Shown here: positions 8,984-35,146 of the stretch, in pieces
Numbering within the stretch: the stretch's first letter is position 1
How the letters are laid out: each line of letters opens with the position of its first letter
Assembly (NCBI GenBank): GCA_049472355.1
Contig: JBLIRP010000035.1
Location: 1 to 35,713, forward strand
Length of the DNA: 35,713 bases
From: a bacterium
Lineage (GTDB): Bacteria; SZUA-182; DTGQ01; JAFGSM01
Reading direction: 5' to 3'
Made by a program: the position numbers and the translations under genes
Notes under the pieces: model-generated
Databases searched by the model: none
What the model was told of the DNA's origin: nothing
What the model saw: only the letters and a program-made list of their open reading frames with translations

Positions 8984-11900
8984 ATGAAATCCACCATCAA
9001 GGGATATCATCTCATTCTGATCGCCGTAATCACCGCAATCCTCACCCTTGCCCCCCGAGCCTGGGCCGAATGGGAGCAGTTCGATCCCAATAGAACCGAA
9101 AATTTCCCTTCCTCCCGCATCGTCAGCCTGGCAGCGGACCCCAACAGGGTGTGGGTCGCAACCGACGAGGGGCTGGTGGATATGCTCCTGGAGGATCCGA
9201 ACGAAGAATGGACGGATCATAGCCTGATTGATTCCTCATATACCCCCATTACCGCCATGAACATAGACCAGGATGCGCTCCTTTGGCTCGGGACCCCTCT
9301 GGGGTTGGTCTCATATGATCCTGACAATCTCCTCGATCCGAACAATCCCAGGGTATACACTGAAATTAATCTTTTCGACCCCAATGAAATCGTTGACATC
9401 GAGGCGGATGCCAATTACGTATGGATCGCAAGAACGGCCAATTTGGACGACAATGACGGTCTCCACAGCTTTAACAAATCGACACATAACTTTACGCTTT
9501 ACAGACACGATACATCATTATTTGACTCCATCTCCTGCCGGGGGGTTGCCTCGGCTGATGATGATGATGTATGGGCGCTCCCATTACTCTTCGGCGTCTA
9601 CCGCTACACGGTCAGCGGCAATACATGGGATTATTTCCTCCCATCCGGATGGTCGACACTCGTCTTCGACAGCATCGAGATGGGGAACGCCAATGACCTG
9701 TGGTTGGGCAGTGGCAATTCCGGCCTGTGGCGATTTCAGCCTGATCCGAACGTATGGGCACACTGGGCGGCATCCGAGTATGGTCTTCCCTCTGACAGCA
9801 TCATGGCGCTCGGCGTCTACGATGATGCAAACCGGGTCATTGTGGTCACCAATGAGGGGATTGCTCGCTATGACCTCGATCTCGACCTGTGGCAGCCCAT
9901 CGGTCCCCCTGCCGACGTTGACCTGGAAGACCAGGTGATCACCCATGTCCTGGTGGACACCGTGGACTCCTCGAACCACCAGGTTTGGTTCGGCACCCAG
10001 AATGGGGGGCTCTACCGGTGGAAGGAGGGTGCGCTCATCTGGACGAGCCCGGCGAACGGGAGCGTGGAGGTGTCCCTGGATACCAACAGCATCGAGGTGG
10101 TGTTCAACGAGCGTATCGACGACAGCACCATCGATCTGGGCGGAGCCGGAAGCAGCCTGACCTTCGAGATGCTCGACGAGAATCTCGTCCTTATCAACGA
10201 TCCCAACATATACGACCCGAATGACTTCACCTGGCACTTCCGTGATCCCAATAATAACACCCATCTCATCATCGAGCCGAAGGAGGCGGGGTACCAGCTC
10301 CATCCCAACACCTACTACCGTTTCAAGTTTACCTCGGCCATCCTGGATCAATCCGCTTCACCAATCCTGAACGTCGACAAGGAGCTGCAGTTCAAGACCC
10401 TCGTCCCGCCGGAGGTGACTGATACCGATCCCAATAATAACGAGACCGGCGTGGCCCTGGATGCCACGATCACCATCACGTTCAACAAGCTGATGGATCA
10501 TGCCAGCTTTTTCTTGGGTTATCCGTCGAATACGCGACTTCAGCGTTTCGTAGACCCCGTGCAATACCCCGTGCATAACATCTACGGGGACGAGGCCAGC
10601 TTTGTTGATGCGAACAACCAGAGCATCCTTACCATAGACGTGACCGGAGGATTCTTCCCTGGGAGCGAGTACACCCTGAGAATCATCAAGGATGTGACCG
10701 ACCTCTCCGGGAACCCCCTCAGCGAGGACCTTGTCCTGACCTTCACCACCGTTCCCGCGCCCGAGGTCACGAGCCTCGAACCTGCCGATGGCGCGGAGAA
10801 TGTTTCGTGGGATACGAACATTGTGGTCAGCTTCAGCGAATCAATGGACACGGGCTCGGTGCAGGACCACTTCAGCATCTCGCCCGGGGTGACCACCGGC
10901 ACCTTCGCTTGGTTTGACGCAAACACACGGGTGTCCTTTCAGCCTTCGGCACCCCTTGACTATGCGACCACCTATCAGGTCACCATCGATGCGAATGCGG
11001 TCGATGAAAACGGGATTCCCCTGGGGGCCGACTACACCTGGTCATTTACCACCCTTGCCGATCCCGATGACGTTTCCGTGGTTTCAGCGTTTCCTGATCC
11101 GAACGAGACCGCCGCATCCATCTATACGGAGGTCCGGGTGCTCTTCACCCAGGCGATGAACACCGCGAGCGTGGAGGGTGCCTTCAGCCTGCTCGACGAA
11201 AGCCTCGCCAGCGTCCCGGGGGCCTTTACCTGGAGCGCCGATTCGAAGGAGTTTCACTTCGCCCCGACAAATCCCCTGGAGGACGGCGGGACCTACACGG
11301 CCGCCGTAACAACTGCCGCCCGGTCGGTATCGTTAGGACACCTCGATCCGAACGTGGAGTGGGCCTTCACCTGCGTGCTCCCCACCGCGTATCCGGTTGA
11401 TCCGAACCAGGCATGGCCTGCCGTTGCCATCGATCCCAATGGTATCACGATTGATCCCAACGACATCGGGTTCTCCGCTATGGGCATCAGCCCTGCGGAC
11501 GGGAGCCTCTGGACCGGACTCGCCTCCATCGATCCCAACACCGGGATCTGGACGGGGCTCGGGCTGTATCACTACGATGGAATCGAGTGGACGCACTATA
11601 CTGCATCCGATCCCAACTGCGGGCTGACCAGCGATGCGGTCACCGACATCGCCTTTGACAGCATGGGGAACGTGTGGGTGGCAACGGAGCCGGATCCCAA
11701 CAATACCGGCGGCGGGATAGCCCGGTTCGACGGCGAGGAGTGGTCGCTCTATTCCCCTGGTATCGATCCCAACCAGTTCTATATCGTGAACAGGGCGGGA
11801 CTGACCCCTGAGGCCATCCAACTGTTTTTCAGGGTCAATGCCGTCGATGTGTATCCCGCAGGCACCGGGGACCTGATCTGGATCGCCACCACCGGAGGGA

Positions 11901-13354
11901 TCGGTGTGGGACAATACGATCCCAACATAGGGGCGGATGGGGATTGGAAGTGGACCGCCAAGGCTGATCCCCAGACACTGCACGTGCTCGCCGTGGACCC
12001 GGTCACCGGCACCATCTGGCTGGAGAGCGGAAACCCGATCTGGGACCCGGACGACCCTTGCAATTACATTGCCGGGATCGATGCACTGAAATTCGCCGAC
12101 TACCTGGATGAGTGGCCCGAGGTGTGGGACCCCAACATATGGGCATGGAACCCGAACGGGGGGCTGCCCAAGGTCAGGATGCTCGGTCAGGTGCGCCCCT
12201 TCCTGAGGGGCATGACTGCGGATGGAAACCGCAACCTCTGGCTTGCCGCTTACGACGGGCTCTACGCCATAAACATAGACAACCTGCTCCTGGGGGTATG
12301 CGATTTTGCAGCGTATGACTACACCGATACCGCCGGCGGGCTTCTGTACGATTCCATTTACGGGGTGACGGTGAGCCCCGATGATCCGAACACGCTCTGG
12401 GTGATCACCTCGGCCGATCCGAACCAGGGGGCGGGCATCAGCAGCTATGATGTCACCGCGCCCGTCGGCTCTCCCGAGAGCTGGGCCCGGTACACCTTTG
12501 AGGGTGATGATGTGTTCGCCGCCTACCCGATCAAAAACGGCGGCGTCATGGCGGGGACCGGCGAGGGGCTTTTGATTGTCGGCGACGACGGCAGCCCGTC
12601 GGTTGCCACCTCCTATCCCTCCGATCCCAACACGAATATACCGGTCGGGGGACCGTACTGGGTGCAATTTTCCGAATTGATGGATACCGATACCGCTGAG
12701 GATGCCTTCTCCCTAAGGGATGTACACTCCATTGCGGTTACAGGGTCATTTGCGTGGGAGAGCGCACGACTCGTATTCACCCCGAGCAGCAGCCTGGTTT
12801 CCAGCAGTGTCTATACCATGAGGGTGGATCCCAATGCCGCCGATCTTTCCGGCAACCTGCTTGGCCAAGCCTATCAGGTGAGCTTCAGGACCTCCTCCGG
12901 GTGGATTGCGTCCACCAGCCCCTACCAGGGGGAGCACGGGGTCGGTATTGCGGCGCAGGTGGTCATAAACTTTGACCGGGCCATGGATCCGAACAGCGTT
13001 CAGAACGCCTTCTGCCTCAAGATAGACCCAAGTTATGGAGCGCATTCCTGTATTGATGGCTCCTTCACCTGGGACCAGAATAACACGGTCCTCACCTTTA
13101 ATCCCGACGAGGACCTGGACCAGGGGACCCTTTACCTGATGACCATTGATGATACCGCCACCGATGATGGCGGGACACCGTTGCCGGAGATGTTCACCCT
13201 GCAGTTTACCACGGCCTTCGCCACCAGGGTGCTCAGGTTTTCTGAGGTGGAATGTTTCATACAGAGCGTTGAGGAGAAAGACGCCGGTATTGTTGAAAGG
13301 ATGCGGAATCTGTTCCGTTTTATTGTCACTCGTGCGACAGGCTCGGAACCGTAA
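8984..13354 (+). CDS. large secreted protein: two beta-propeller (Reg_prop-like) regions, about six SbsA/Big_5-like Ig domains and a C-terminal CFI motif; DPN-rich
   Basis: Signal peptide (…APRAWA|EW). Propeller blades such as VTDIAFDSMGNVWVAT and LWLGT..GL. Big_5-like units such as PEVTSLEPADGAENVSWDTNIVVSFSESMD...PLDYATTYQVTI...WSFTT. ECFIQSV lies near the C-terminus. Strong RBS (GAGGAG). Confidence 0.85.
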   Translation: MKSTIKGYHLILIAVITAILTLAPRAWAEWEQFDPNRTENFPSSRIVSLAADPNRVWVATDEGLVDMLLEDPNEEWTDHSLIDSSYTPITAMNIDQDALLWLGTPLGLVSYDPDNLLDPNNPRVYTEINLFDPNEIVDIEADANYVWIARTANLDDNDGLHSFNKSTHNFTLYRHDTSLFDSISCRGVASADDDDVWALPLLFGVYRYTVSGNTWDYFLPSGWSTLVFDSIEMGNANDLWLGSGNSGLWRFQPDPNVWAHWAASEYGLPSDSIMALGVYDDANRVIVVTNEGIARYDLDLDLWQPIGPPADVDLEDQVITHVLVDTVDSSNHQVWFGTQNGGLYRWKEGALIWTSPANGSVEVSLDTNSIEVVFNERIDDSTIDLGGAGSSLTFEMLDENLVLINDPNIYDPNDFTWHFRDPNNNTHLIIEPKEAGYQLHPNTYYRFKFTSAILDQSASPILNVDKELQFKTLVPPEVTDTDPNNNETGVALDATITITFNKLMDHASFFLGYPSNTRLQRFVDPVQYPVHNIYGDEASFVDANNQSILTIDVTGGFFPGSEYTLRIIKDVTDLSGNPLSEDLVLTFTTVPAPEVTSLEPADGAENVSWDTNIVVSFSESMDTGSVQDHFSISPGVTTGTFAWFDANTRVSFQPSAPLDYATTYQVTIDANAVDENGIPLGADYTWSFTTLADPDDVSVVSAFPDPNETAASIYTEVRVLFTQAMNTASVEGAFSLLDESLASVPGAFTWSADSKEFHFAPTNPLEDGGTYTAAVTTAARSVSLGHLDPNVEWAFTCVLPTAYPVDPNQAWPAVAIDPNGITIDPNDIGFSAMGISPADGSLWTGLASIDPNTGIWTGLGLYHYDGIEWTHYTASDPNCGLTSDAVTDIAFDSMGNVWVATEPDPNNTGGGIARFDGEEWSLYSPGIDPNQFYIVNRAGLTPEAIQLFFRVNAVDVYPAGTGDLIWIATTGGIGVGQYDPNIGADGDWKWTAKADPQTLHVLAVDPVTGTIWLESGNPIWDPDDPCNYIAGIDALKFADYLDEWPEVWDPNIWAWNPNGGLPKVRMLGQVRPFLRGMTADGNRNLWLAAYDGLYAINIDNLLLGVCDFAAYDYTDTAGGLLYDSIYGVTVSPDDPNTLWVITSADPNQGAGISSYDVTAPVGSPESWARYTFEGDDVFAAYPIKNGGVMAGTGEGLLIVGDDGSPSVATSYPSDPNTNIPVGGPYWVQFSELMDTDTAEDAFSLRDVHSIAVTGSFAWESARLVFTPSSSLVSSSVYTMRVDPNAADLSGNLLGQAYQVSFRTSSGWIASTSPYQGEHGVGIAAQVVINFDRAMDPNSVQNAFCLKIDPSYGAHSCIDGSFTWDQNNTVLTFNPDEDLDQGTLYLMTIDDTATDDGGTPLPEMFTLQFTTAFATRVLRFSEVECFIQSVEEKDAGIVERMRNLFRFIVTRATGSEP

Positions 13355-13420
13355 AGAGATCTCGCCATGACGGGATTGATTGACGGTCGCATGATTTAAC
13401 CTGCAACACAGAGGTACTCT

Positions 13421-16400
13421 ATGATGCGCAGTCCAACACGGGATCGCAGCAGGGTCCTGATAATGATCGTATGCCTTGTGGTCGTGATCACCTGCATGTG
13501 CACCTGCGGCTATGCCGCGGAGATCGACGTCCTTCCGGGGAATGTATATGAGTTTCCGCAGGACCCGAACCGCAGGACCAATAACAAACCCAATACGAGG
13601 ATTGCCTCGAACGGCGAGGGATATCTCTGCGTATGGCAGGAGCATGACGGCGGGGCCAGGGATGTCTATGCACGGCGGCTTGACCAGGAGGGTGTCGTTC
13701 AGGGAGATCCCGTGATTGTCGGCTCCGTTGCCGGAAATCAAAGAAACCCGGATGTCGGCTCCGACGGCGAGCGCTACCTCGTCGTATGGGCGGACGGCAG
13801 GAATGAGGATCCGAACAACAATGTGGGTCTGGATATCTACGGCGCTATTATCAGTGACCAGGGGACCGTGGTGGATGAGATTGCCATCGCAACGGGCTCG
13901 GGGAGCCAGAACTTTCCCAAGGTAAAATGGCACGGCGATCACTATCTGGTCGTGTGGGAGGATTGGACGGGGCATGACGCCGAGAAGGGCAAGGTCGCCC
14001 TGTACGGCACAAGACTGGATGCGGGCGGCGCCTTCATCGACGAGGATTCCGTGGAGATCACCACGGACATGGCGTACAACAAAAAGGGGATCAGGCCCTG
14101 CTTCGATATCGCCTCGATCGAGGACCCCAACGGGGTGTCCTGGATCGTTGCCTGGAGCGGGAGTGTGCAGGATCCCTCCGAATACGGCCTGGATATCCTG
14201 GCTCGCTTCCTCCAGGTGGACCCCAACGACACGCTTGCGTTGTCCCCCCTTCTTGCCCAGATTCCCATCTCCGGCCTGGATCAATACAACCCATCGGTGG
14301 AAGGGCTGGAGGGCCAGTTTCTGGTTGTCTGGGAGCAATGGGCGGACGACGAGGGGACCGATACGGATGTCTTGGGTATCATGCTCAATATGCAAGGGGG
14401 GGTCGCCGGGGGGCTCATCAATATCGGCTCTGCCCCCAAAAAACAGCGCTACCCCGAGCTGGCGACCAATGGGAGTGGCTTTCTCGCCGTGTGGCTGGAT
14501 CAGCGGGAATCCACCTCCGAACAATCAGTTGAGCACATCTACGGGATCCGTATCTCACCCGAAGGGTTCCTCCTCCAGGATGACCCCGCATCATTCGGCG
14601 GCACACGCCTCAGCGAGGATGCAAACCAGGTCATCTGGCTGACCGACGTTGCCACCCCCGGGGGAGATGATGACCGCTATTTCTGCTTTTGGTCGGCACG
14701 AAGCGACGATGTGTGGACCCTGCGGGGAAGGATGTACGATCCTCCCCCCCCGCCCTGGCTGGAATGGGCGGGGATCGACGACTACGAGGAAGACGGGGTC
14801 AATCCGGACCAGGCCGCCGGAGGGAGCGACTTCACCTTCAAGGTGAAATATTTCTCGGATCCGGAGATCAATGAAGGGCCCGACGTCGCCCAGGTATGGA
14901 TCGACCTGGACGGCAGCGGGAGCTTCGGGAGTGACGAGCGTTTCGATATGTCCGCAGAGGGCTCGGGCGATTTTACGCTCGGCAGGGTATACACACTCCA
15001 GAAAAAGATCCTCTATGACGGGGAGGGGACCCTCGGCTACCGCTTCTTTTTTGCCGATGCCTATAACGTGGCCACCGGCGATCCGGCGGAGGGTGATACC
15101 TTCGAGGTGGATCTGGTGGGGAAGCGGCCATTCCTGGACTGGACCGAAGAGGTGGGCTTCACCGCTGACGGCGCGAGACCCGACGGAATCCGGTGGGGGG
15201 AGAGCGCCTCCTTTGAATTCCGCGTCCTGTACCAGGATGAAAATAATGATGCACCGCCGACCACGAGGCTGTGGGTGGACCGGAATGCGGATGGATACTA
15301 CGATCCGAACCACGAGGTCTGGGACATGACGGCGAGCGGGTCCGACTATAAGAATGGTGAGATCTTCACCACGACGATCACCCTGGAATCGGGCGTAGTA
15401 ACCACCATGCCCTACCGGTTTGAATTCGATGACGGGAAAAACCGTTCAACCGGGGAGCCCAGGTCCGGAAGCTATCTCAGCTTCAATCCCCTGGGTGAAA
15501 CCGCCGCCTGCCTGAACACCCATCAACAGCTCTTTCCTGCCGTCACCGTCACCCTTGACGGGTACCAGGTATTCTGGCAGGACAGCCGGGATTGGGAGCT
15601 TGACGCCAATGACACCCTGATCGTGCGAAGCCATGTCTTCATGGAGCTGCTCGACGGGAATATGCGAGTGATGGATGCCGCAGGCGAGCCGGGCCAGACA
15701 AAACTGGATACGGGAGACACGGGAGCCTTCAAGCCTTCCGCCATCCACAGCAAGGCAACGGGCACAACCCTGGTGATCTGGGAGGACCTGAGAAACGGCG
15801 CCACGATAAAACCTCCGGAGGATGCCGGAAACGACTTCAAGCCCGAATCCATATACGAGGGGCTGGACATATATGGGATATTCCTGGATGGGGACGGAAC
15901 AGCCTTAACCGACACGACCGCTGCCAATGAGGCGGGGGAATTCATCATCGCCGATGCAAGCGACATTTCAGATCCGAATATCGGCCGGAATGTGCTGAAT
16001 CCCGCCATGGCCATGGGGGAGAACGGTCAGTACCTGGTTGCGTGGGAGGATGAGTCCAGGATAAACAGGCAGCGGAAGACCGATATCTATGCACGTTTCG
16101 TGGAACATCCCGCAGGCGCCTCCGGGGAGATATTCTCCCTGAAGATCAACAACTGGGTGGCACAGGGAGGGGACGTAGGGGACGAGCACCAGCTCCTGCC
16201 GAGGGTTGCCTGGAACGGCGAATACTACATGGTGGTATGGCAGGACATTGCCGATGCCTCTCCCAGCGTGGGTTATAATCACAGCCGGGTCTACGGCATG
16301 CGGATCTCTCCCGGGGGGAATTTGCATCCGGAGGAGGTGGGATTCAATCTGTTCGACGAGGACTTCAGAAGTGATCCGAACCAGAATCGGAATCAGCTCC

Positions 16401-19078
16401 TCCCTGACATTGCCTCGGACGGCAATGATTTCCTCGTGGTGTGGCAGGACGACCGTTTCGTGGACACCGACCGCGGATATGACATCTACGGCATGAGGAT
16501 CAACAGCAACGGCGAGGCCCTCGACCTGCCCTTCAAGGAGGTCGGCATCTGCACCGCAGACGGCCACCAGGTGAGGCCCCGGGTTGCCTGGGATCCGCAG
16601 GGGAACCAGTACCTGATCTCATGGCTCGATATCCCCTTCGAGCTTGCCCCTGAGGATATGCTGGCGCACCGGTTGAGCGTTCCCTTCCCCAGGACCGGGA
16701 ACGTCAGGGTGGTGAGGATGGACCCGAACGGCCGGCTCCTGGACGGTTCCCCCGGGTCGAACGAAAAATATGAGGGAACGCAGCCCGTGGGGGTTTCCCT
16801 GACCCAGGACCGTCCTGCGTTTACCTGCGATGCTGCCTCAGGCTGCGCCTTCATCTGGGAGGACATACGCAACAGCCGCTCCTATGACCTCTACACCACG
16901 TCCTTTCAGAAAACCCTGAACTGGGTGGACGACGATGATTACGGCGACAAGGGGGTGCACCCCGCATCCGCCTCGCCGGGGGAGACCTTTACCTTCAAGG
17001 TGCACTACCGGGACCGGCTGGACAACCCCCCTGCAAAGGCCCAGGTATGGATCGACCTCAACGACGACGGTGACTTCGATGAGGATGAGCAATTCGACAT
17101 GGAGCCGGAGGACCCCAACGCCGCCATGGAAAACGGGATGATATATTCATATTCCAAGGAGATTGATTTTCCCGAGGACACTGACGGGGCGCTTGCATAC
17201 CGGTTCTATTTCGAGGATGAGAATGGGGTTGAAGTCCCGGGCATCGGAAGCGGCATCAATTTCCTCACCCTGACGATAACCGAGGCCCCCCAGCTCGACT
17301 GGGCAGGGGGAACAGGCTTCACCACCGACGGTGTCGCGCCGAATCAGGGTGACAGCGGATCGGTCTTCACGTTTAAGGTAAAGTATACTGATCCTTCAAA
17401 TCTTAAACCCGGAATTGCCCGTGTATGGATCGATCTGGATGATGACGGTGAGTATGATGATTATTTTGAAAAGTCTTCCATGAATGCAGAAGATCAATAT
17501 GACTCGGATTACTCCGATGGCAAGATCTATTACCTGGATAAAAGGATCACCTATCAGGGGGATGGGGTTATCAAATATAAATTCGATTTTTATAATAACG
17601 CGGGAATCAAAGCAGAGGGCCCGCCCACATATGATAATACATATACTTTCACAGTTAACGAGGCCACTCTGGAACCCATGTGGCAAACACTCTATAAAAA
17701 GGATGGGCTCAATGGAAACATGATCTCATCCTTGGCCTTGGATTCGGATAACAACCTATGGGTTGGTTTCATCAGGGCAAGGGATACAAACGGTAACATA
17801 ACAGATTCCCAAAGTGGTGGTATCGCCAAGTTTGACGGAAATGATTGGACCCCTTTCAGAGGGACACAATACCTGGCGAGTGATGATGTGCGGTCACTTG
17901 TAGTGACACCGGACGATGCCCTGTGGATATGGACCACTGCCGGTCCGATAGAATCCGACGGTCAAGATGATTGGACGCCTGTCGAAGACAAGGATCCAAA
18001 CATGGTTTTCCAAGGGATGGCTGGAGATCTTCAGGGACGGGCATGGGTGGTAAAGATGTCTAAAAGGACCGAAGATTTTCCCGATTCCAATGTTATTCAG
18101 CAAGATGCCAATGTAAGGAGTAAGTTGATAAAATATGAATCAGGTAAGGACCCTGTGGCGTATTCTGCAACCACCTTTGGCGGCAACATTATTACGGCCT
18201 TGACAATCGATACAGATGGGAAGGTGTGGGTAGGGATTGTGGATTACTTATATACCGATCCTAATGACATCAAATATCCGGGAATCAAGATATTTAATCC
18301 CGATAATGCGGACGTAGAATTCATAAAAGATGTTTATCCAGGCTATCCAGGCGGAGACTATATCATGTTTATGGACAGGGATCAGGAAGGAGATATCTGG
18401 GTGGCGAGTTTTGATAGCTCCAATCGTAGCGCAGCGTTAGCACTGAGCCATTTTGACTATGGGCAGGAATCCTGGACTCACTATACCAGAGGAAAGAGTG
18501 GTGTTCAATTTGGAAGTAATTATATTAGCTCCTTGGATCGCAGGGGGGATGACTTATATCTGGGACATTATGGACAGTATGTTTTTTCGGGAGAATATGC
18601 TTATTCGGAACAGTATCAAGGTCCTGCCGTTGATCCAAACAACCCCGGTGGGGCAACCTATCACGATTTGAACAGTACGGCCTGGAGTCTTTTTAATAGT
18701 ATAACAGCGCCTGTGAACGATTATTTTAAAGATATCTCTTCACTTGTGATTAATACCGATGATATTGTCTGGTTTGGCACGGCGAACGGCCTTGTGCGAT
18801 ATAACCCCAGAGGAAAGTATATCCCCGTGGGCCCCCAACCAAAGGAATATAATGGGCTCTTCGACCCGAACGAGGAGACCGGGTGCTTCATAACCCAGAT
18901 AGAAGGCGGCAGGCAGGGAGGCGGCGGGGTGGTCATCCCCCTGGGTATGCTCTTCTGCCTGTTCCTGATGCTGATCGGATTTTTGTGCGCCCGGCCGCGC
19001 ACATTGTACAAGGGCGGTCCCGGGACCAGCATGCCTGCGGAATCGAATGGTATACGCAAGGACTGCATGCATCAATGA
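13421..19078 (+). CDS. very large secreted/anchored protein: repeated YLVVWED...DIYG blades, four Ig-like repeats with DxDxDG loops, a C-terminal Reg_prop-like propeller, and a GCFI-TM-basic tail
   Basis: Signal peptide (…CTCGYA|AE). Architecture is [blade block, Ig, Ig] twice, then a propeller (ISSLALDSDNNLWVG, ITALTIDTDGKVWVG), then GCFITQI...VVIPLGMLFCLFLMLIGFLC-ARPR. Confidence 0.85.
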   Translation: MMRSPTRDRSRVLIMIVCLVVVITCMCTCGYAAEIDVLPGNVYEFPQDPNRRTNNKPNTRIASNGEGYLCVWQEHDGGARDVYARRLDQEGVVQGDPVIVGSVAGNQRNPDVGSDGERYLVVWADGRNEDPNNNVGLDIYGAIISDQGTVVDEIAIATGSGSQNFPKVKWHGDHYLVVWEDWTGHDAEKGKVALYGTRLDAGGAFIDEDSVEITTDMAYNKKGIRPCFDIASIEDPNGVSWIVAWSGSVQDPSEYGLDILARFLQVDPNDTLALSPLLAQIPISGLDQYNPSVEGLEGQFLVVWEQWADDEGTDTDVLGIMLNMQGGVAGGLINIGSAPKKQRYPELATNGSGFLAVWLDQRESTSEQSVEHIYGIRISPEGFLLQDDPASFGGTRLSEDANQVIWLTDVATPGGDDDRYFCFWSARSDDVWTLRGRMYDPPPPPWLEWAGIDDYEEDGVNPDQAAGGSDFTFKVKYFSDPEINEGPDVAQVWIDLDGSGSFGSDERFDMSAEGSGDFTLGRVYTLQKKILYDGEGTLGYRFFFADAYNVATGDPAEGDTFEVDLVGKRPFLDWTEEVGFTADGARPDGIRWGESASFEFRVLYQDENNDAPPTTRLWVDRNADGYYDPNHEVWDMTASGSDYKNGEIFTTTITLESGVVTTMPYRFEFDDGKNRSTGEPRSGSYLSFNPLGETAACLNTHQQLFPAVTVTLDGYQVFWQDSRDWELDANDTLIVRSHVFMELLDGNMRVMDAAGEPGQTKLDTGDTGAFKPSAIHSKATGTTLVIWEDLRNGATIKPPEDAGNDFKPESIYEGLDIYGIFLDGDGTALTDTTAANEAGEFIIADASDISDPNIGRNVLNPAMAMGENGQYLVAWEDESRINRQRKTDIYARFVEHPAGASGEIFSLKINNWVAQGGDVGDEHQLLPRVAWNGEYYMVVWQDIADASPSVGYNHSRVYGMRISPGGNLHPEEVGFNLFDEDFRSDPNQNRNQLLPDIASDGNDFLVVWQDDRFVDTDRGYDIYGMRINSNGEALDLPFKEVGICTADGHQVRPRVAWDPQGNQYLISWLDIPFELAPEDMLAHRLSVPFPRTGNVRVVRMDPNGRLLDGSPGSNEKYEGTQPVGVSLTQDRPAFTCDAASGCAFIWEDIRNSRSYDLYTTSFQKTLNWVDDDDYGDKGVHPASASPGETFTFKVHYRDRLDNPPAKAQVWIDLNDDGDFDEDEQFDMEPEDPNAAMENGMIYSYSKEIDFPEDTDGALAYRFYFEDENGVEVPGIGSGINFLTLTITEAPQLDWAGGTGFTTDGVAPNQGDSGSVFTFKVKYTDPSNLKPGIARVWIDLDDDGEYDDYFEKSSMNAEDQYDSDYSDGKIYYLDKRITYQGDGVIKYKFDFYNNAGIKAEGPPTYDNTYTFTVNEATLEPMWQTLYKKDGLNGNMISSLALDSDNNLWVGFIRARDTNGNITDSQSGGIAKFDGNDWTPFRGTQYLASDDVRSLVVTPDDALWIWTTAGPIESDGQDDWTPVEDKDPNMVFQGMAGDLQGRAWVVKMSKRTEDFPDSNVIQQDANVRSKLIKYESGKDPVAYSATTFGGNIITALTIDTDGKVWVGIVDYLYTDPNDIKYPGIKIFNPDNADVEFIKDVYPGYPGGDYIMFMDRDQEGDIWVASFDSSNRSAALALSHFDYGQESWTHYTRGKSGVQFGSNYISSLDRRGDDLYLGHYGQYVFSGEYAYSEQYQGPAVDPNNPGGATYHDLNSTAWSLFNSITAPVNDYFKDISSLVINTDDIVWFGTANGLVRYNPRGKYIPVGPQPKEYNGLFDPNEETGCFITQIEGGRQGGGGVVIPLGMLFCLFLMLIGFLCARPRTLYKGGPGTSMPAESNGIRKDCMHQ

Positions 19079-19115: not shown

Positions 19116-19787
19116 ATGAGAAAAGATCACTTGCTTGTTCCGTCACTGATAGTGGCGGCGCTGTTCATCCTGGCGCTTCCCTCCCGTGGCCGTGCCCTTC
19201 CGCCCTCGCCGAGGCGCAACATCTCCTTCGAGACCAGGGGGGGATACTACGTGATGGATACCTCCAGGTTCGAGGAATCCGTATTCGGAAGAAAGTACGG
19301 GATCATAGGCGGATTGAAGGTGAACATGGAATTCCCCAAGCAATTCCTTCAGGTGGGGGTAGGCGCGGGGTATATGCGGGAACACGAGCCCTTCTACTAC
19401 CTCTATAACGTCCCCCTGGAACTATCGGTGAACGCACGATTGAGGTTTTCACCCGATCAGTTCATCGTCCCCTACGTCGGTGGAGGGGTGGATTACAGCT
19501 ATTTCAAACAGAGGGCAACCTACCTCGATCCCAATACGGATGAGATACTCGAGTCCGCACTGCACAATCATCGCTCGGGTTTCCATGCAAATGCAGGATT
19601 TCAGGTCCTGCTCAACCGTATCGCACCCGATGCCGCAGGGCGGTTCGATGAGAAGTTCGGGGTGAATGCCACCTACCTTACCTTCGAGGTGCGGTACGCC
19701 GACCTTACCAATTTTGATGCATTAAAGGAGGGAGAGACCGATCTGAGCGGCTGGTTTTACTATGTAGGGCTCTTGTTTGAATTCTGA
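19116..19787 (+). CDS. outer-membrane beta-barrel protein, MXAN_2562-like
   Basis: Signal peptide, amphipathic strands (IVPYVGGGVDYSYF, GFHANAGFQVLL), a segment LLNRIAPDAAGRFDEKFGVNATYLTFE recalled as typical of the MXAN_2562 family, and a C-terminal beta-signal YYVGLLFEF. The family assignment comes from recall, not a search. Confidence 0.75.
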   Translation: MRKDHLLVPSLIVAALFILALPSRGRALPPSPRRNISFETRGGYYVMDTSRFEESVFGRKYGIIGGLKVNMEFPKQFLQVGVGAGYMREHEPFYYLYNVPLELSVNARLRFSPDQFIVPYVGGGVDYSYFKQRATYLDPNTDEILESALHNHRSGFHANAGFQVLLNRIAPDAAGRFDEKFGVNATYLTFEVRYADLTNFDALKEGETDLSGWFYYVGLLFEF

Positions 19788-20006: not shown

Positions 20007-21302
20007 ATGTCCAGTATGTCGATTTCAGTGACTGCAATCATGATGATCCTCGTCAGCGTCATGTCCCTTTGTTTTGTCCCGGCACCGGCGGCAAACGGCC
20101 TATGTGCCGTGTACGTGGACGCAAACTCTTACAGGTACCCGGACGGCAGCAAGGAAGCCCCCTTTCCCTGTATCTATCAGGCACTGGATAACGCCCCGGA
20201 GCACTGCACCATCCGCATCATGCCCGGTGAGTATGACGAGTCCGTCACTGTCGACACGCCCAACCTCTCCCTCAAGGGAGCCGATCCGGATGAGGACCCG
20301 ATGGATACCGTCATCCATGGGACCGTGGAATGCAGCGGGGTGAAGGGATGCCTGCTGGAAGGGCTGACCATTGACGGCGCCGAAAGGGATGGGGTCCGGT
20401 GCATCGAGGCGGATGTCACCATCCGCCGCTGCATCATTATCCGGAACGGGTACGACGGCATCCACGTCGAGGGGGGGAGTGCCCGGATCGAACACTGCAT
20501 CGTCTGGAATAACGGTCATATGGGGATCTATGCGGAACGTGGTTACCCGGGCATCCTCAACTCCATCGTTACCGCCAACCGGAAGGGCGGGGTCAGGGGG
20601 GCGGAGATCCGTTTCTCCATTATTCAGGACCATACCCAGCTCAATCCCCTGGACGGCTTCGGCCTCATCAATGCCGATCCCCTGTTCGTGAGTGCCGATC
20701 CGACAAAGGGCCCCCCCTTCGATTTCCGGCTCCAAAGCAGGACAGGGGATTTCGACGTGGACAGCCCTGCCGTCGACCGGGGGAGCGCCGACGGTGTGAG
20801 TCATGACCTGGTTACCGATATCGGGGTCTACCAGGATTTCGAGCGGACCGAACCGGTGATCAGCCCGCAGCGGATGCTCCTGGAGGAGACAGGGGAGGGC
20901 CGCTTTTCCGCCTTTGGGGGAACACCCCCTTACTCCTGGAAGAGTTCCGATCCCGAGGTGGCATCCATAGACCCCAACGGATCGGTGGTTGCGCTCAGAC
21001 CGGGGTACACATGGATCAATGCTGTGGACAGCGGTGCTGTGGAGGGGAATCCCGCCCTCCTGGTGGTGAAGAGCCCGGCGGACGTCCTTTTCAGCATGGA
21101 TGATCCCGACGCCACCTGGGACCTGAATCTCGATTATTGCATATTCGATGATCCCTTCCGATACCAGGTGGTGGCCTCCTATACCGATCCGATGGCAGCG
21201 GTGAGGTCCCGTATACTTCCCGTTCGGAACCGTGTGTTCTGCAGCGGAGACATCGACGGGTACAACGAGTATCCCTCCCTTGTCGACGGCCGGTTCTACT
21301 GA
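20007..21302 (+). CDS. secreted right-handed parallel beta-helix protein (DUF1565-like N-terminus) with a Big_2-like Ig domain
   Basis: Signal peptide; YVDA...DGSKEAPFPCIYQAL..A...TIRIMPGEY; beta-helix rungs IRRCIIIRN..GI and IEHCIVWNN..GI; NADPLFV...DFRLQ...SPAVDRG; GGTPPYSWKSSDPEVASIDPNGSVVALRPG. RBS AAAGGGAG. Confidence 0.8.
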   Translation: MSSMSISVTAIMMILVSVMSLCFVPAPAANGLCAVYVDANSYRYPDGSKEAPFPCIYQALDNAPEHCTIRIMPGEYDESVTVDTPNLSLKGADPDEDPMDTVIHGTVECSGVKGCLLEGLTIDGAERDGVRCIEADVTIRRCIIIRNGYDGIHVEGGSARIEHCIVWNNGHMGIYAERGYPGILNSIVTANRKGGVRGAEIRFSIIQDHTQLNPLDGFGLINADPLFVSADPTKGPPFDFRLQSRTGDFDVDSPAVDRGSADGVSHDLVTDIGVYQDFERTEPVISPQRMLLEETGEGRFSAFGGTPPYSWKSSDPEVASIDPNGSVVALRPGYTWINAVDSGAVEGNPALLVVKSPADVLFSMDDPDATWDLNLDYCIFDDPFRYQVVASYTDPMAAVRSRILPVRNRVFCSGDIDGYNEYPSLVDGRFY

Positions 21303-23940: not shown

Positions 23941-25812
23941 CTACCAGTCCTTTTCCGGTGCATGCGTTCCCATGCCGGGGACGGGTTGCTTGTCCGAGGG
24001 TGTGCCCCGTTCCTCATCAATCGATTGGAGCAACCTTTCCGCCTCCTTGGGATCGATCCGCATGCCGAAGGCAGGCCTTCCCTGTTCCCCGGTCTCCTCG
24101 CCCGGCGGTCGGGCCTCACCCTGCTGAAGGCCTGCCGGTCCATTCGGGTCCTGATGGGCCTGGGCCGCATGCCGGTCCCCAGCCCCTGATTCCTTTTTTT
24201 CCTTCCCCTCCGGGGTGCCCTTGTCGCGATCACCCTGTTCGGGTTTTCCCTTTCCGGAATCCTCGGGCCTTCCCTGTTCCCCGGCGCCCTTTGTATCCTC
24301 GCCTTTATCCTCGCCCTCTTCGTCCTTCTCCTGTCTTTCCTGTGCCTGTTGCTTGCGCCGTTGCATCTCCTTTTGGACGAATTCCATGTTATAGTGGGCA
24401 TCACCATCATTGGGATCGAGTTCGATGGCCTTCCGGTACCAGGCCAGCGCATCCTCCATTTTGCCCATGCGAAAGGCGCAGTTTCCCAGATTATAGTACG
24501 CCCTTTCCCGCAGGTCGATGTCCGTGGTTCGAGCGGCTGCCGCCTCGTAATTTCTGGCCGCCTCCTCGTACTGATTCATCCGGTAGTAGGTGGCCCCGAT
24601 ATTGTAGTGGAGCACCGGATCGTCCGGGGAATCGATCTGGGCCTCCAGGTATGCGGAAAGCGCCTTATCGTATTGCCCGGCGGCAAAGAAACGCTCCGCC
24701 TCCTTCGGTTTTGACAGGGGAAGAATGCCTGCACTCAGGGAAGAGACCCACGGCGGGAGGAGCAGAAGGAATGCGCACAGGCATGCAATACGCGCGGCAT
24801 TGCTCACCCTTTTTCGTTCCCTTCGGTATTCGGGCAGCAACTGCTCGATCACCAGGACAATGAGGGCAAGGAGCAAAAACCACTGGAACCGTTCCTCCCA
24901 TACCCTTTTCTTGGTGCTGGCGAGCTCGGTCTGATCCATCATGCGCACCCCTTCCAGGTAGATCTTTTCCAGGTCCAGGTCCCCGGTGACCGAGCGGACA
25001 TATCGCCCCCCGGTCTCCAGGGCGATTCCCTGGAGTGTGCCCTCGTCGAGCGTGCTGAGGATGAGATTGCCCTGCCGGTCCTTTTTGAATCCGGAACCAT
25101 CGGCATTCGGTATGGGGGCGCCTCCCTCCCGTCCGATGCCGATCGGAAAGATCTTGATCCCCCGCTTCTTTGCCTCGGCGGCCGCTGCCAGCGGATCGCC
25201 CTCGTGGTCCTCGCCGTCGGTGATGAGTATGATCGCCTGCGATCCCTTCCGGGTCCGGTCGAAGGAGGCGATGCACTCCCTGATGGCATGCCCGATGGCG
25301 GTCCCCTGGACCGGGATGAGGTCCGTATCGATGTAGTCCAGAAACATTCCGAATGCATTGTAGTCGAGGGTCAGAGGGCACTGGACAAAGCTCGTCCCGG
25401 CAAAGGCGATCAGCCCTATCCGGTCACCTGCCAGCATTCCGAGCAGGTCCCTGATTTCCCGCTTTGCCCGCTCCAGCCTGTTCGGTTTGACGTCCGTGGC
25501 CAGCATGCTCTGAGAGCAATCCACCACCACCATGAGATCCACCCCGTGCCGCCGGACCTCCTCCCAATGAAATCCCCATCGCGGTCTCATCACGGCAAGG
25601 ATGATACAGGCAATGCCCGCGAGGATCAACAGCGCCTTGAACCATTGCCGTGCCCGCCTGCGTCGGGGCATGATGTGCCCGGCGAGATGCCTTGTGCAGA
25701 AAAGCTCGATGAGACGCGCCTTCCGTGTGAAGGCATAGAGGTAGAAGAGGCTCATGATCGGGATGAGCCAGAAGAGGGATATCACCCACACGGATACGTT
25801 CGCAAACCTCAT
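23941..25812 (-). CDS. BatB-BatC fusion: vWA domain, TPR repeats, charged linker and KDW terminus
   Basis: RPRWG, MIDAS DCSQS, PNRLERAK, ITDGEDH; then TPRs (LHYNIGATYYRMNQYEEA, AYYNLGNCAFRMGK) and the C-terminal EKDW typical of BatC. Confidence 0.88.
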   Translation of the reverse strand: MRFANVSVWVISLFWLIPIMSLFYLYAFTRKARLIELFCTRHLAGHIMPRRRRARQWFKALLILAGIACIILAVMRPRWGFHWEEVRRHGVDLMVVVDCSQSMLATDVKPNRLERAKREIRDLLGMLAGDRIGLIAFAGTSFVQCPLTLDYNAFGMFLDYIDTDLIPVQGTAIGHAIRECIASFDRTRKGSQAIILITDGEDHEGDPLAAAAEAKKRGIKIFPIGIGREGGAPIPNADGSGFKKDRQGNLILSTLDEGTLQGIALETGGRYVRSVTGDLDLEKIYLEGVRMMDQTELASTKKRVWEERFQWFLLLALIVLVIEQLLPEYRRERKRVSNAARIACLCAFLLLLPPWVSSLSAGILPLSKPKEAERFFAAGQYDKALSAYLEAQIDSPDDPVLHYNIGATYYRMNQYEEAARNYEAAAARTTDIDLRERAYYNLGNCAFRMGKMEDALAWYRKAIELDPNDGDAHYNMEFVQKEMQRRKQQAQERQEKDEEGEDKGEDTKGAGEQGRPEDSGKGKPEQGDRDKGTPEGKEKKESGAGDRHAAQAHQDPNGPAGLQQGEARPPGEETGEQGRPAFGMRIDPKEAERLLQSIDEERGTPSDKQPVPGMGTHAPEKDW

Positions 25813-25879: not shown

Positions 25880-26896
25880 TCACGGTATCTTCCCGAACCT
25901 GGTCTGCGAGAGTACGACCTCTATCACCAGGATGAGGAGCGCAGGGATCAGAAACCACCAGAACAGCTCGTTGTACTCCATGTATTCCTTGACCTTTACC
26001 TCGGTCTTCTCGAGCCGATCGATCTGGTCGTAGACCTGTTCAAGGGCCTCGGCATCCTGCGCCCTGAAGTAGCGCCCCTCGGTGATCCGGGCGATCTCCT
26101 TCAGGGTATCCTCGTCGAGGTCAACCCGCTGGTACACATACTGTTTGCCAAAGAGGGGGTGGTCCACCAGGAAGGGGGCCTCACCCTCGGTGCCCGCCCC
26201 GATGGTATAGATCCGCACCCCGAATTCCTGCGCGACCATTGCCGCTGTCCGGGGATCGATCCTTCCTGCATTGTTTCTGCCGTCGGTCAGGAGGATCATC
26301 ACCCGGGATTTCGCCTTTTCCAATGCCTTGAGCCGCTTTACCCCGATGGCGACGGCATCCCCTATGGCGGTTTTGTCCTCCCCTGCCATGCCGATGGTCA
26401 CCCGGTCGAGAAAGCCGAGGAGCACGCCGTAGTCCAGGGTGAGGGGACACTGGGTAAACGCCTGCTCGCCGAAGACCACCATACCGATCCGGTCGCTCCC
26501 CCGGGCCTGGATGAATCCCCGCACCACCTCCTTGACCGCGGTCAACCGGTCGACCCGTGTGCCTTCCATGCTGAAATCGAGCGCCCTCATGCTTCCGGAG
26601 GTGTCGATGCACAGGAGGATATCGATCCCTTCACTCGTATATTCGGTCTGTTTGTTCCCCAGTTGGGGGCGTGCCATGGCGACGATGATCAACGCCAGGC
26701 ACAGGCACCGCAGGCCGATCAGGCCGTGGCGGAGGTAGAGGGACCGGGAGGTTCTGAGTTGCATGAGGGAGCGTATGGAGGAGAAGCGGACCCGTGCATG
26801 GCCGAATCCCTTGATGTATGCATAGATCAGCATGGGTATGACGCACAGGAGGAGGAGCACCCACGGGTCCTGGAATCGTAACAGGCGATGCATCAT
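25880..26896 (-). CDS. batA: BatA family vWA-domain protein
   Basis: RFQDPWVLLLL, MARPQ, MIDAS DTSGSM, DRIGMVVF, TAIGDA and ILLTDGRNNAG. Confidence 0.92.
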   Translation of the reverse strand: MMHRLLRFQDPWVLLLLCVIPMLIYAYIKGFGHARVRFSSIRSLMQLRTSRSLYLRHGLIGLRCLCLALIIVAMARPQLGNKQTEYTSEGIDILLCIDTSGSMRALDFSMEGTRVDRLTAVKEVVRGFIQARGSDRIGMVVFGEQAFTQCPLTLDYGVLLGFLDRVTIGMAGEDKTAIGDAVAIGVKRLKALEKAKSRVMILLTDGRNNAGRIDPRTAAMVAQEFGVRIYTIGAGTEGEAPFLVDHPLFGKQYVYQRVDLDEDTLKEIARITEGRYFRAQDAEALEQVYDQIDRLEKTEVKVKEYMEYNELFWWFLIPALLILVIEVVLSQTRFGKIP

Positions 26897-27918
26897 GCAC
26901 TCCCCCCGACCGGCTCCTGTTTCACGGCTGTTTCCAGGATGAACCTGCGGGTCTCTTCCCAGTCCTCGAGTGCCTTTTCCTTGTCGGGTGTATGCTGGGC
27001 AAACTTCACCAGGTCCTCACCCGAGGAGAGGACCCGGACGGTGTCCTTCTGCGGCCTGGTCAAGTCCATTGCCTCGATCCGGGGGATCAGCTCCTCGGTG
27101 GTGCTTTCCTGCGCAGGGAGTCCGAACCGCTTCTCCATGTATCCCCTGAGTATCCCGGAGAGCTCGAAGTAGAAGGAACGGTAGTCGTTCCGGTCAAGAT
27201 GGTGCGATGCCTTGAGCCTTTCCAACTCCCGGAGCGCCACCTCATCGGGGCAGGGCGGGAGAACGGTCTCCTTTTTATGTCGTGAGCGCAGAAATCGACC
27301 CAACACGATCCCCCCGATGATGAGCGCACACACTGCAAGCCCTGTCAGGATGTACAGGAGCACGAGGGAGGTTCCCATGGGCTCGGGCGGTTTTATGTCG
27401 CGAATATCGGCGGACTCACTCTCGGATGCGGCGCCTGCAACCGCCTCGACAAAGATCCGGGATGCCCGGACCTCTTTACCGCCTCCGTTCGGGTCCTGAT
27501 AGGCAACCACCGCAGGAGGGATGACGTAGGAGCCGGCAGCGTCCGCCTGAAGCGTGTACCACTTTTCCCACACCCGTTTCCCATCCTCCTCCAACGGCCC
27601 TTCAGCCCCCATGTCAATGATCCTGAGGCCGGTGATTTTTACGCCCATATCCGGAATGCGCGGGGTGATGCCGGCTGTCGCCCTCACGGTCAACGTATAG
27701 GTGACACTCTCCCCCACGGTGATGGTGGAGCGGTCGACTCCGGATTCCACCTCCACAGGCTGAAGCTGCACGGTCAACGGCCTTTTGTTACCTTTCTCCG
27801 CCGTGCCGCAGCCAAGTAAAACAAGGGCGCACCCAAGAAGAAGGAAAATGAGGCAGGCCTTCACCGCAAAGGCCATGGCGGCGTTGGGGATGGCATATCT
27901 TTTACCAAAGGATTTCAT
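26893..27918 (-). CDS. Bat-operon membrane protein (BatD-like Ig domain, IRDIK motif, TM), possibly a lipoprotein
   Basis: Signal ending in LVLLG|C (lipobox-like); VDRSTITVGESVTYTL; DIRDIKPP-TM; ALRELERL...ILRGYME.RF...A.ESTTEEL...DLVKFA. Confidence 0.8.
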   Translation of the reverse strand: MKSFGKRYAIPNAAMAFAVKACLIFLLLGCALVLLGCGTAEKGNKRPLTVQLQPVEVESGVDRSTITVGESVTYTLTVRATAGITPRIPDMGVKITGLRIIDMGAEGPLEEDGKRVWEKWYTLQADAAGSYVIPPAVVAYQDPNGGGKEVRASRIFVEAVAGAASESESADIRDIKPPEPMGTSLVLLYILTGLAVCALIIGGIVLGRFLRSRHKKETVLPPCPDEVALRELERLKASHHLDRNDYRSFYFELSGILRGYMEKRFGLPAQESTTEELIPRIEAMDLTRPQKDTVRVLSSGEDLVKFAQHTPDKEKALEDWEETRRFILETAVKQEPVGGSA

Positions 27919-34700: not shown

Positions 34701-35146
34701 TCCAGGAGAAGGCGGCTGTCCAGGCCGAGGATGGGCCTGCCGTCCGAATGGATATTGCCGATCTGTTCGAGGCGCTCGGAGATGGCGCAGGCGTCGTCGA
34801 GGGAGGGAACCAGGATACAGTTGTGGACCTTGCGGGTCCTGTTTCCCTTCTTGTAGATCGAGCTTATTTCGGACGAGAGGACAAAGCGGACCGCCCGGTG
34901 ACAGGGAGGGGGGATCTCCCTGAGCACGGCCTGCTCGAGTTCCGGCTTGAGCCTGTAGAGGCCCTCTTCCGCAGGGATGAGCTTCTGTCCCAACTCCTCC
35001 CGCCATCCGGGATGGGTGAAATCTCCGGTGCCCACCAGGGTGATCCCCTTGAGACACGCCCACAGAACAAGATGCTCGGGATCGCAATCCTTGCTCGTGG
35101 CAACGGAAAAGTGGGAGTGAATATGCAAATCGGCCAGGAATGACAT
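31727..35146 (-). CDS. endonuclease Q-like PHP domain fused to a UvrD/PcrA superfamily 1 helicase
   Basis: N-terminus has ADLHIHSHFS, GTGDFTHP, PAHVWTP, ETGLSSD, SNSDAHS and GKYHFNGHRGC...CPVCGK. C-terminus has AGPGTGKT, DEFQD, GDPNQAIYGFRGA, NYRS, TLHAAKGLEF and EERRLFYVGMTRA. Start placed at ATG 35146. Confidence 0.92.
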   Translation of the reverse strand: MSFLADLHIHSHFSVATSKDCDPEHLVLWACLKGITLVGTGDFTHPGWREELGQKLIPAEEGLYRLKPELEQAVLREIPPPCHRAVRFVLSSEISSIYKKGNRTRKVHNCILVPSLDDACAISERLEQIGNIHSDGRPILGLDSRLLLEIMLEKCPHGIFIPAHVWTPHFSLFGAYSGFDALEECFEDLSCHIHALETGLSSDPAMNWRVSALDRYTLVSNSDAHSPRNLAREANILDCPLSFPALRSALEDKEEGQFLGTVEFFPQEGKYHFNGHRGCGVRMDPEETIRAGGICPVCGKKVTLGVMHRVVELADREAGYRPEGAPPFSSVIPLPEILADYLGCGVGTKRVRQAYFGLIHNLGPEWEILTQTPFEELTRHAGPSLAGGIIRVRSGKVTIRPGFDGEYGTIEVFSPRERESQRGLFAVQTEPGIVNCARNAPEGKEGAIPGRRGRRSSSPPLPHDVPGSEEKSEGESPLSLLNASQRTCVQSPTGPVLVIAGPGTGKTRTLSLRILHLVREKGVSPAGIAAITFTNKAAKEMADRLDALMGHPPSPEARPFIGTFHNLCLHLLRRFGNARHFILFHTYDSLALIGRILEKRDAEKSVKPGECLRAISLIKTADCDGNSATGCDPIILDIYEEYQAGLKRYGALDYDDLIINTVRLLRDDEGTAARIRASYTHILVDEFQDVNPVQYALVILLTGNGAENLFLIGDPNQAIYGFRGADNRLFFRIQEEFPGVQIHSLEENYRSCAPIIESALHVIRRNPQPLPVRLRSIRGEGPLIKLLSLPSERAEGIAVAKEISSLMGGIDMLQAHGETGPSARPATFGTQGGYGFSDFAVLTRTGNQADVLEECLVKEGIPYRVAGNQDILENPLVRQVLALLRWCHNPSDEHSFLQAIDLPVIPLDKREKRAIIDILPRDDGDAAQEGVKKDSSAFRSLINTLTERGMEQAVEALSRYHRMAEGESPAGFVNQVTAGLASHEECSPHARDLRRLGLLAEEFPDVASFLEGVTLCREGDISWRGIGGRRDSEMVNLMTLHAAKGLEFPVVFVCGCEEGLLPYRHRTRPAPLDEERRLFYVGMTRARDCLYLSWCAHRTGRADAGPSSFLTDIPETLSERAVYSPPPSKRPAIRQLGLW

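Follow-up and report, generated by a model that had tools for sequence, protein, structure and literature searches.

The tripeptide Asp-Pro-Asn (DPN) is strongly enriched in two large exported proteins encoded in a 35,713-nucleotide stretch of bacterial DNA (contig JBLIRP010000035.1 of assembly GCA_049472355.1, GTDB lineage SZUA-182; DTGQ01; JAFGSM01), which we analysed as a whole and refer to as the window. We propose that D-P-N-(not Pro) serves as acceptor sequon in a putative periplasmic, Ser/Thr-independent N-glycosylation for which a membrane protein encoded outside the window, P0001, is the likely transferase, and we put the probability of this reading at roughly 0.55. It is supported by the compartment bias of the motif, the exclusion of Pro directly after the Asn, the turnover of sites among orthologues, the restriction of the enrichment to particular lineages and a candidate enzyme with matching features. 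The two proteins, with lengths in amino acids (aa), and the densest sites are as follows:

8984..13354, + strand: exported protein 1, 1456 aa, with propeller (Reg_prop) and Big_5 domains, 26 DPN and 5 DAN
10199..10252, + strand: cluster of three DPN within 18 residues of protein 1 (site coordinates)
11345-11461, + strand: second DPN cluster of protein 1
13421..19078 (start possibly at 13463), + strand: exported protein 2, 1885 aa, with propeller and Ig-like domains, 13 DPN and 3 DAN

The DPN and DAN counts in both proteins are exactly those of the original prediction, which had been made from the sequence of the window and had suggested D-(P/A)-N as a modification site. Asn follows Asp-Pro in 26 of 34 instances in protein 1 (binomial p 3e-25), where our computed expectation of 0.56 DPN agrees with the earlier estimate of about one or fewer, and in 13 of 22 instances in protein 2 (binomial p 9e-12). 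Only 4 of the 39 copies carry Ser or Thr two residues after the Asn (position +2), again as predicted, and the codons of the motif vary, as had been noted in arguing against a DNA repeat.

We determined the distribution of the motif in the source genome (3.49 Mb in 148 contigs, 87.5% complete) with genes from our own gene caller and exported or cytoplasmic labels from our own hydrophobicity rule, both of which are rough. Asn comes after Asp-Pro in 323 of 1456 instances in the 716 exported proteins, compared with 40 of 1196 in the 1188 cytoplasmic ones (odds ratio 8.2, p 9e-51). The cytoplasmic fraction equals the frequency of Asn (0.032) and is thus at chance level, so that an equal frequency in cytoplasmic proteins, which the original prediction had named as an outcome that would count against it, is not what we observe. 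Proteins outside this comparison gave 38/613 (membrane), 11/196 (ambiguous) and 23/174 (5'-truncated). The contrast persists in all three protein size classes, and removal of the 20 richest proteins leaves an exported ratio of 170/1133. When each tripeptide is counted once per exported protein, DPN is the most over-represented of all (126 proteins vs. 32.7 expected). In exported genes the corresponding DNA pattern occurs 323 times in frame, compared with 8 times out of frame (both remaining frames together) and 27 times on the opposite strand; because the excess is confined to the reading frame, the motif is therefore selected as protein. A cause at the DNA level, such as GATC sites or repeats, was rejected on this basis and because the Asp codons are used alike in DPN and in the remaining Asp-Pro dipeptides.

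The D-P-N part of the suggested D-(P/A)-N acceptor is borne out by these counts, but the DAN part is not: DAN is enriched just 1.2-fold across the proteome of this genome and tolerates Pro at +1. In exported proteins EPN stands at 0.5-fold and DSN and DTN are below 1, and NPN, EPN, SPN and DPD show no excess comparable to that of DPN. The flanks are equally specific. Pro follows exported DPN at +1 in 2 of 323 cases (p 6e-10), compared with 39 of 439 for other xPN and 787 of 9351 for other Asn; for DPN of cytoplasmic proteins the figure is 5 of 40. At +2, Ser or Thr is at background (38/323 vs. 12.6%, p 0.73), Pro is raised (48/323) and Asp or Glu is halved (16/323). Because Pro is excluded at +1, Ser/Thr at +2 is at background and DAN and EPN are weak, the motif in this genome is D-P-N-(not P), and it looks enzyme-read. 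Among exported proteins of the same genome, N-x-S/T is not enriched (1226/9858 vs. a background of 12.3%), the canonical PglB-type sequon is depleted (98 vs. 142 expected), W-x-x-W is not enriched (63 vs. 68.7 expected; the W-x-x-W/C acceptor forms are at 0.92 and 1.0 of expectation) and neither is D-(S/T)-(A/I/L/V/M/T) (729 vs. 753 expected, 0.97).

Individual sites turn over among homologues while their density is kept. Each of six orthologues of protein 1 (43-87% identical) has 19-27 DPN, and these fall into 61 site columns, 6 of them occupied in every orthologue and 21 in a single one. Among five protein 2 homologues the number is 7-19 DPN each, at mostly different positions. These sites bear on the alternative that DPN has a structural role only, as an Asx-Pro turn or a Ca2+ ligand preferred in the surface proteins of these lineages, with nothing attached. 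They do lie at positions where Big_5 and propeller repeats commonly carry Asp-Pro, the enrichment of Pro at +2 is turn-like, and DPN occurs in turns of TPR repeats; from the TPR consensus we take about 6 of the 323 exported sites, plus residue 466 of a BatB-like protein of the window, to be ordinary turns of this kind. However, the homologous propeller and Big_5 domains of seven proteins from other taxa have only 2 DPN among 41 Asp-Pro, so the motif is not an ordinary turn shared by homologues of all taxa, the second outcome that had been named as counting against a modification. In addition, cytoplasmic Asp-Pro turns of the source genome have no Asn bias and allow Pro at +1, the related tripeptides named above lack a like excess, and the trait switches at clade boundaries along with a transferase clade (see below). 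The Ca2+-binding turn offered by the original prediction as its second explanation is disfavoured by the halving of Asp/Glu at +2 and by an Asn that is fixed although Asp would serve. A purely structural role is thus, in our estimate, rather unlikely.

To compare lineages we counted paired DPN with a DNA pattern, as single-pattern DNA counts are too noisy. All 13 genomes of the order to which the source genome belongs have 14-134 paired hits (3.4-34 per Mb), whereas all seven other genomes of this small phylum have 0-2; protein-level counts for these seven DPN-poor genomes are small samples, and it is the pattern search that bears the comparison. Of 381 outgroup genomes, just four (G480, G448, G234 and G389) reach 14 hits. 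G480 was rejected as DPN-rich because its hits are a non-coding tandem repeat, and G448 because its hits are low-complexity or out of frame. The large genomes G234 and G389 have raised control counts (24 paired hits against 9 for the former, 19 against 4 for the latter), and distant members of the candidate enzyme family described below are present in them. As a separate observation, many contigs of G480 contain abundant non-coding tandem repeats around one 9-base word, amounting to 192 paired hits. A triple-DPN scan of 185,579 genomes gave at least 119 stretches; among those listed, tandem repeats of low complexity made up the majority, and dispersed DPN was seen in Phycisphaerae (planctomycetes). 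Across 81 Phycisphaerae genomes the paired count, obtained with a slightly wider pattern, is bimodal, and 17 genomes have 14 or more hits. In two of these organisms Pro follows DPN at +1 in 0 of 74 and 0 of 49 cases and Asp or Glu is found at +2 in 3-4%, in regions that were picked for paired DPN hits. The same flanks thus recur in a second phylum, in part of the Phycisphaerae.

The original prediction had suggested looking for divergent STT3 or other GT-C glycosyltransferases that co-distribute with DPN, and such a search yielded a candidate GT-C family and no canonical STT3. The STT3 Pfam model (PF02516) has no match above cut-off in the source genome, at its 87.5% completeness, in 11 of its 12 relatives in the order or in five DPN-bearing entries. 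The twelfth relative, G002, has a contig-end fragment resembling archaeal AglB; at G002:C225:11581-13404, this fragment and a flippase-like gene look archaeal, and the contig is probably misbinned. Among multi-spanning proteins of the source genome, P0001 and a paralogue on contig C89 stood out:

C75:27150-29267: P0001, candidate GT-C, membrane protein of 705 aa
C75:29366-30340: GT2 glycosyltransferase of the ArnC/PgfS type, neighbour of P0001
C89:1438-2958: paralogue in the P0001 family, without TPR, order-wide, with N-S-S-D-I-G-G at the WWD position

P0001 carries a C-terminal TPR, has no Pfam or NCBIfam matches beyond TPR and belongs to a family of 18,528 clusters (50% identity) at E 1e-30 or better; a sequence search of solved structures likewise returned TPRs only or nothing. 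A structure model built from a 122-sequence alignment (predicted local distance difference test score, pLDDT, 95.5) best matches yeast STT3 (8age_A; Foldseek E 3e-9; Z 17.9, 447 aligned residues, root mean square deviation 4.0), followed by human STT3, DPY19 (Z 16.0), AglB and PglB. Six charged residues (D96, R198, E325, R382, D500 and R502) are conserved in 96-100% of the 122 sequences. D96 (100%) and E325 (97%), the latter ending a TIYE segment, would by position correspond to the catalytic Asp after the first transmembrane helix (TM1) and to the TIXE/SVSE Glu in external loop EL5. R198 is invariant at the place of the second DXD motif in EL2, where the family's Phycisphaerae clade also has an Asp two positions ahead of the Arg that is mostly absent from the clade of P0001 itself (the C75 clade). 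WWD is absent from every row of the family alignment, and N-S-Y-T-Y-G occupies the aligned place, its position over T-W-W-D-Y-G coming from a weak profile match (E 0.03) to a single PglB-like protein. In AglB, according to the part of the source consulted, it is the TIXE motif that keeps Pro out of +1, while the pocket for Ser/Thr is made by WWDYG (PMC8342417). A transferase retaining TIXE but not WWD would therefore produce the flanks that we see, with no Pro at +1 and no Ser/Thr at +2.

The motif statistics alone would suit any sequence-specific enzyme, and DPN may instead be a covalent site read by another one: the C89-type paralogue, which is likewise order-wide, a TMTC-like or other GT-C, or an enzyme making a non-sugar change at the Asn, Asp or Pro. 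PMT_2-like genes number at least 8 in the source genome, and most of the order has members of one close group of TMTC-like orthologues. The TMTC-like family, however, is found in all 20 genomes of the phylum, including the DPN-poor ones, and a C13-type GT-C is missing from all six genomes of family f3 and present in five of the seven DPN-poor ones; neither of these two rival families follows the distribution of DPN. A Blast comparison of the GT-Cs of the source genome with Phycisphaerae PMT_2 hits gave TMTC-like matches at 23-27% only. The exclusion of Pro at +1 is moreover a known mark of STT3-fold enzymes, as described in the consulted part of PMC8342417. We therefore consider a different enzyme or chemistry unlikely. 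One further transferase gene was noted in the source genome, a Wzy_C/TPR O-transferase-like gene (C61:35720-38934) that adjoins two type IV pilin genes and probably serves pilin O-glycosylation.

The P0001 family is present in all 13 genomes of the order and in none of the seven other genomes of the phylum. The C75 orthologue itself (40-72% identical) was identified in 12 of the 13, and the GT2 gene adjoins it in 10 of these 12 loci; a GT2 gene is also found beside the family gene in three Phycisphaerae and not in three others. Of the 81 Phycisphaerae genomes 32 encode family members, and one well-supported clade of the family is present in 14 of the 17 DPN-rich genomes and in 3 of the 64 others (p 2e-10, a value that is overstated because related genomes are not independent and three of them helped to build the profile). 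Two genomes with the clade that fall below the DPN-rich count, G096 and G064, have a few in-frame DPN pairs. Conserved columns shared specifically with this Phycisphaerae clade number 15 of 184 for the C75 clade, W98, W326 and T482 included, and only 4 of 196 for the C89 paralogue clade (p 0.008).

Several observations weigh against assigning N-glycosylation of D-P-N to P0001. The compartment labels depend on our own hydrophobicity rule and gene caller, and Pro is not depleted at +3 after DPN (18/315), unlike in canonical sequons. G001, which has 22 DPN in its protein 1 orthologue, lacks the C75 gene in its assembly, where the contig ends in the neighbouring gene. Among Phycisphaerae, G083 has the clade and yet 1 paired DPN, while G093, G070 and G123 pass the DPN count without the clade. 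The two clades linked to DPN do not come together in the phylogenetic tree (approximately unbiased test, p 0.0975), so their sisterhood is neither rejected nor shown, and members of the wider family are also present, without DPN, in 6 of the 21 outgroup genomes and in at least 14 DPN-poor Phycisphaerae. All links between DPN and the enzyme are correlational, and those within the phylum come down to a single clade boundary. As for the enzyme, the C75 clade shows no clear second DXD motif, the apparent equivalence of WWD and SYT comes from the weak alignment mentioned above, and DPY19, a Trp C-mannosyltransferase, fits the model nearly as well. The proposal of a Ser/Thr-independent modification of exported proteins is thus supported in part, by the sequence pattern and a candidate enzyme.

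If P0001 is the transferase, the neighbouring GT2 enzyme, judging from its family, would load a sugar onto polyprenyl phosphate, and the GT-C would bind the exported chain at the Asp-Pro turn in the periplasm. By analogy with AglB, TIYE (Glu325) would pair with the residue after the Asn and so exclude Pro at +1, and Asp96 and Glu325 may activate the Asn amide, as their positions suggest. With SYT in the WWD pocket, Ser/Thr at +2 would go unread and the Asp at -2 and Pro at -1 would give the specificity. Large surface proteins, cytochromes and lipoproteins could in this way be coated at up to about 30 sites.

Such a system would be N-glycosylation-like, but as a variant outside the canonical type because WWDYG and Ser/Thr at +2 are both missing. 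It resembles Campylobacter PglB (D/E-x-N-x-S/T; PDB 3RCE, 5OGL, 6GXC) in the Asp at -2 of an Asn in exported proteins, the exclusion of Pro at +1 and a candidate enzyme of STT3 fold (Foldseek E against PglB 1e-6 to 2e-5), and the consulted part of PMC4894442 reports that R331 of PglB forms a salt bridge with the -2 Asp. It differs in requiring Pro at -1, in not accepting Glu at -2 (EPN, 0.5-fold), in the lack of Ser/Thr at +2, in SYT in place of WWD, in the missing PF02516 match and in the depletion of the canonical sequon. Eukaryotic STT3 and archaeal AglB (N-x-S/T; PDB 8AGE, 7E9S) are the best match to the membrane and periplasmic domains (Z 17.9) and share the exclusion of Pro at +1 and, apparently, the TIXE-like segment, but P0001 is 12% identical, lacks WWDYG and has a C-terminal TPR, and N-x-S/T is not enriched. 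For DPY19 (PDB 7ZLG-7ZLI) the fold is nearly as close and the adjoining GT2 gene suggests a polyprenyl-monophosphate donor, as the PDB title gives for DPY19, but its W-x-x-W motif is not enriched. In the general O-glycosylation of Bacteroidota, the consulted part of PMC10897501 describes D-(S/T)-x with the middle Ser/Thr as acceptor, which is likewise a phylum-level, Asp-led tripeptide of extracytoplasmic proteins; here the middle position is Pro and D-(S/T)-(A/I/L/V/M/T) is not enriched. Finally, YfhO-like 'component 27' is an uncharacterised bacterial membrane family with an STT3/PglB-like structure for which the consulted part of PMC10584680 proposes no substrate or motif; its proteins are annotated as YfhO, and 0 of 37 P0001-family members match the YfhO Pfam model. 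Literature searches, in which most subscription journals were outside coverage, returned no relevant paper on a DPN motif or system.

Several of the DPN-richest proteins share a second feature, a C-terminal Cys-Phe-Ile:

13253..13261, + strand: C-terminal Cys-Phe-Ile of protein 1, common to many exported proteins of the source genome
18884..18892, + strand: C-terminal Cys-Phe-Ile of protein 2, followed by a hydrophobic segment

Counted per exported protein, Cys-Phe-Ile ranks second in over-representation (28 vs. 6.7 expected). The C-terminal motif occurs in at least 10 other genes of the source genome and gives no hit to the NCBIfam CFI-box. It is probably a sorting or anchoring signal, and the gene for an MXAN_2562-like barrel lies directly downstream of the two genes in the window. 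DPN might accordingly be a non-covalent tag for an export, sorting or chaperone factor, for instance one handling the Cys-Phe-Ile proteins. We consider this very unlikely, as multiheme cytochromes, lipoproteins and small periplasmic proteins without the tail also bear DPN and 20 or more scattered copies per protein would be unusual for a sorting tag.

The other window genes with DPN are the following:

19152..19787, + strand: outer-membrane beta-barrel, MXAN_2562-like (74.9 bits, below the cut-off of 100), 1 DPN
20043..21302, + strand: exported beta-helix protein, 1 DPN and 1 DAN
23941..25812, - strand: BatB-like vWA/TPR protein, 2 DPN, one in ordinary TPR context
26893..27918, - strand: BatD-like exported protein, 1 DPN
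31727..35146, - strand: UvrD-type helicase with GDPNQ, an ordinary cytoplasmic DPN outside the system

The occurrences reported earlier in the barrel, the beta-helix protein, the two Bat proteins and UvrD are all present, with the qualification that residue 466 of the BatB-like protein lies in a TPR repeat. On our reading of its sequence the helicase (31727-35146, - strand) has a fused N-terminal PHP-like domain with an HxH pattern. RNA contigs cover parts of the window genes at a depth below 7 and do not demonstrate transcription. Elsewhere in the source genome, very large multiheme cytochromes (20-49 CxxCH) carry 3-9 DPN each (C67:34768-42546, C136:3232-7395, C136:8502-11849, C92:11987-14737), and the members of an expanded, unannotated family of exported proteins of 700-900 aa contain repeats rich in Tyr and Gly, have an LGADPN site in common and end in Trp-Trp:

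C132:5713-8043, C104:22223-24541, C129:13923-16268, C13:1701-4046, C1:20953-23604 and others: members of the LGADPN/Trp-Trp family

Two neighbouring distant members of the P0001 family are encoded in G023 (Ca. Edwardsbacteria, judging from an identical protein; C21:31693-33327 and 38289-40085). The 795 kb read from this genome have no DPN excess (15/267 Asp-Pro), but D-(S/T)-(A/I/L/V/M/T) is found 665 times in exported proteins vs. 262 expected (2.5-fold) and 139 times in cytoplasmic proteins vs. 142 expected, which suggests Bacteroidota-type O-glycosylation outside the Bacteroidota. It is conceivable, and we raise it only tentatively, that this unnamed STT3-fold family forms a second class of bacterial enzymes that glycosylate proteins, the Asp-led motif varying between subfamilies. 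Two subfamilies, in the uncultured order and in part of the Phycisphaerae, would N-glycosylate D-P-N-(not P) at up to 30 sites per protein with a polyprenyl-monophosphate sugar and without need of a hydroxy-amino acid, and others may write D-(S/T)-x, as G023 hints.

To our knowledge, N-glycosylation is regarded as needing Ser/Thr at +2 almost universally across the three domains of life. If the proposed N-glycosylation of D-P-N-(not Pro) is real, a proteome-wide sequon of this kind would be a natural and general exception to that rule, with Pro required at -1, in lineages that include part of the Phycisphaerae, a class with some strains in culture. A very large GT-C family that lacks annotation would thereby gain its first function, genome statistics would by themselves suffice to recognise a sequon, and glycoengineering would have a transferase orthogonal to PglB.

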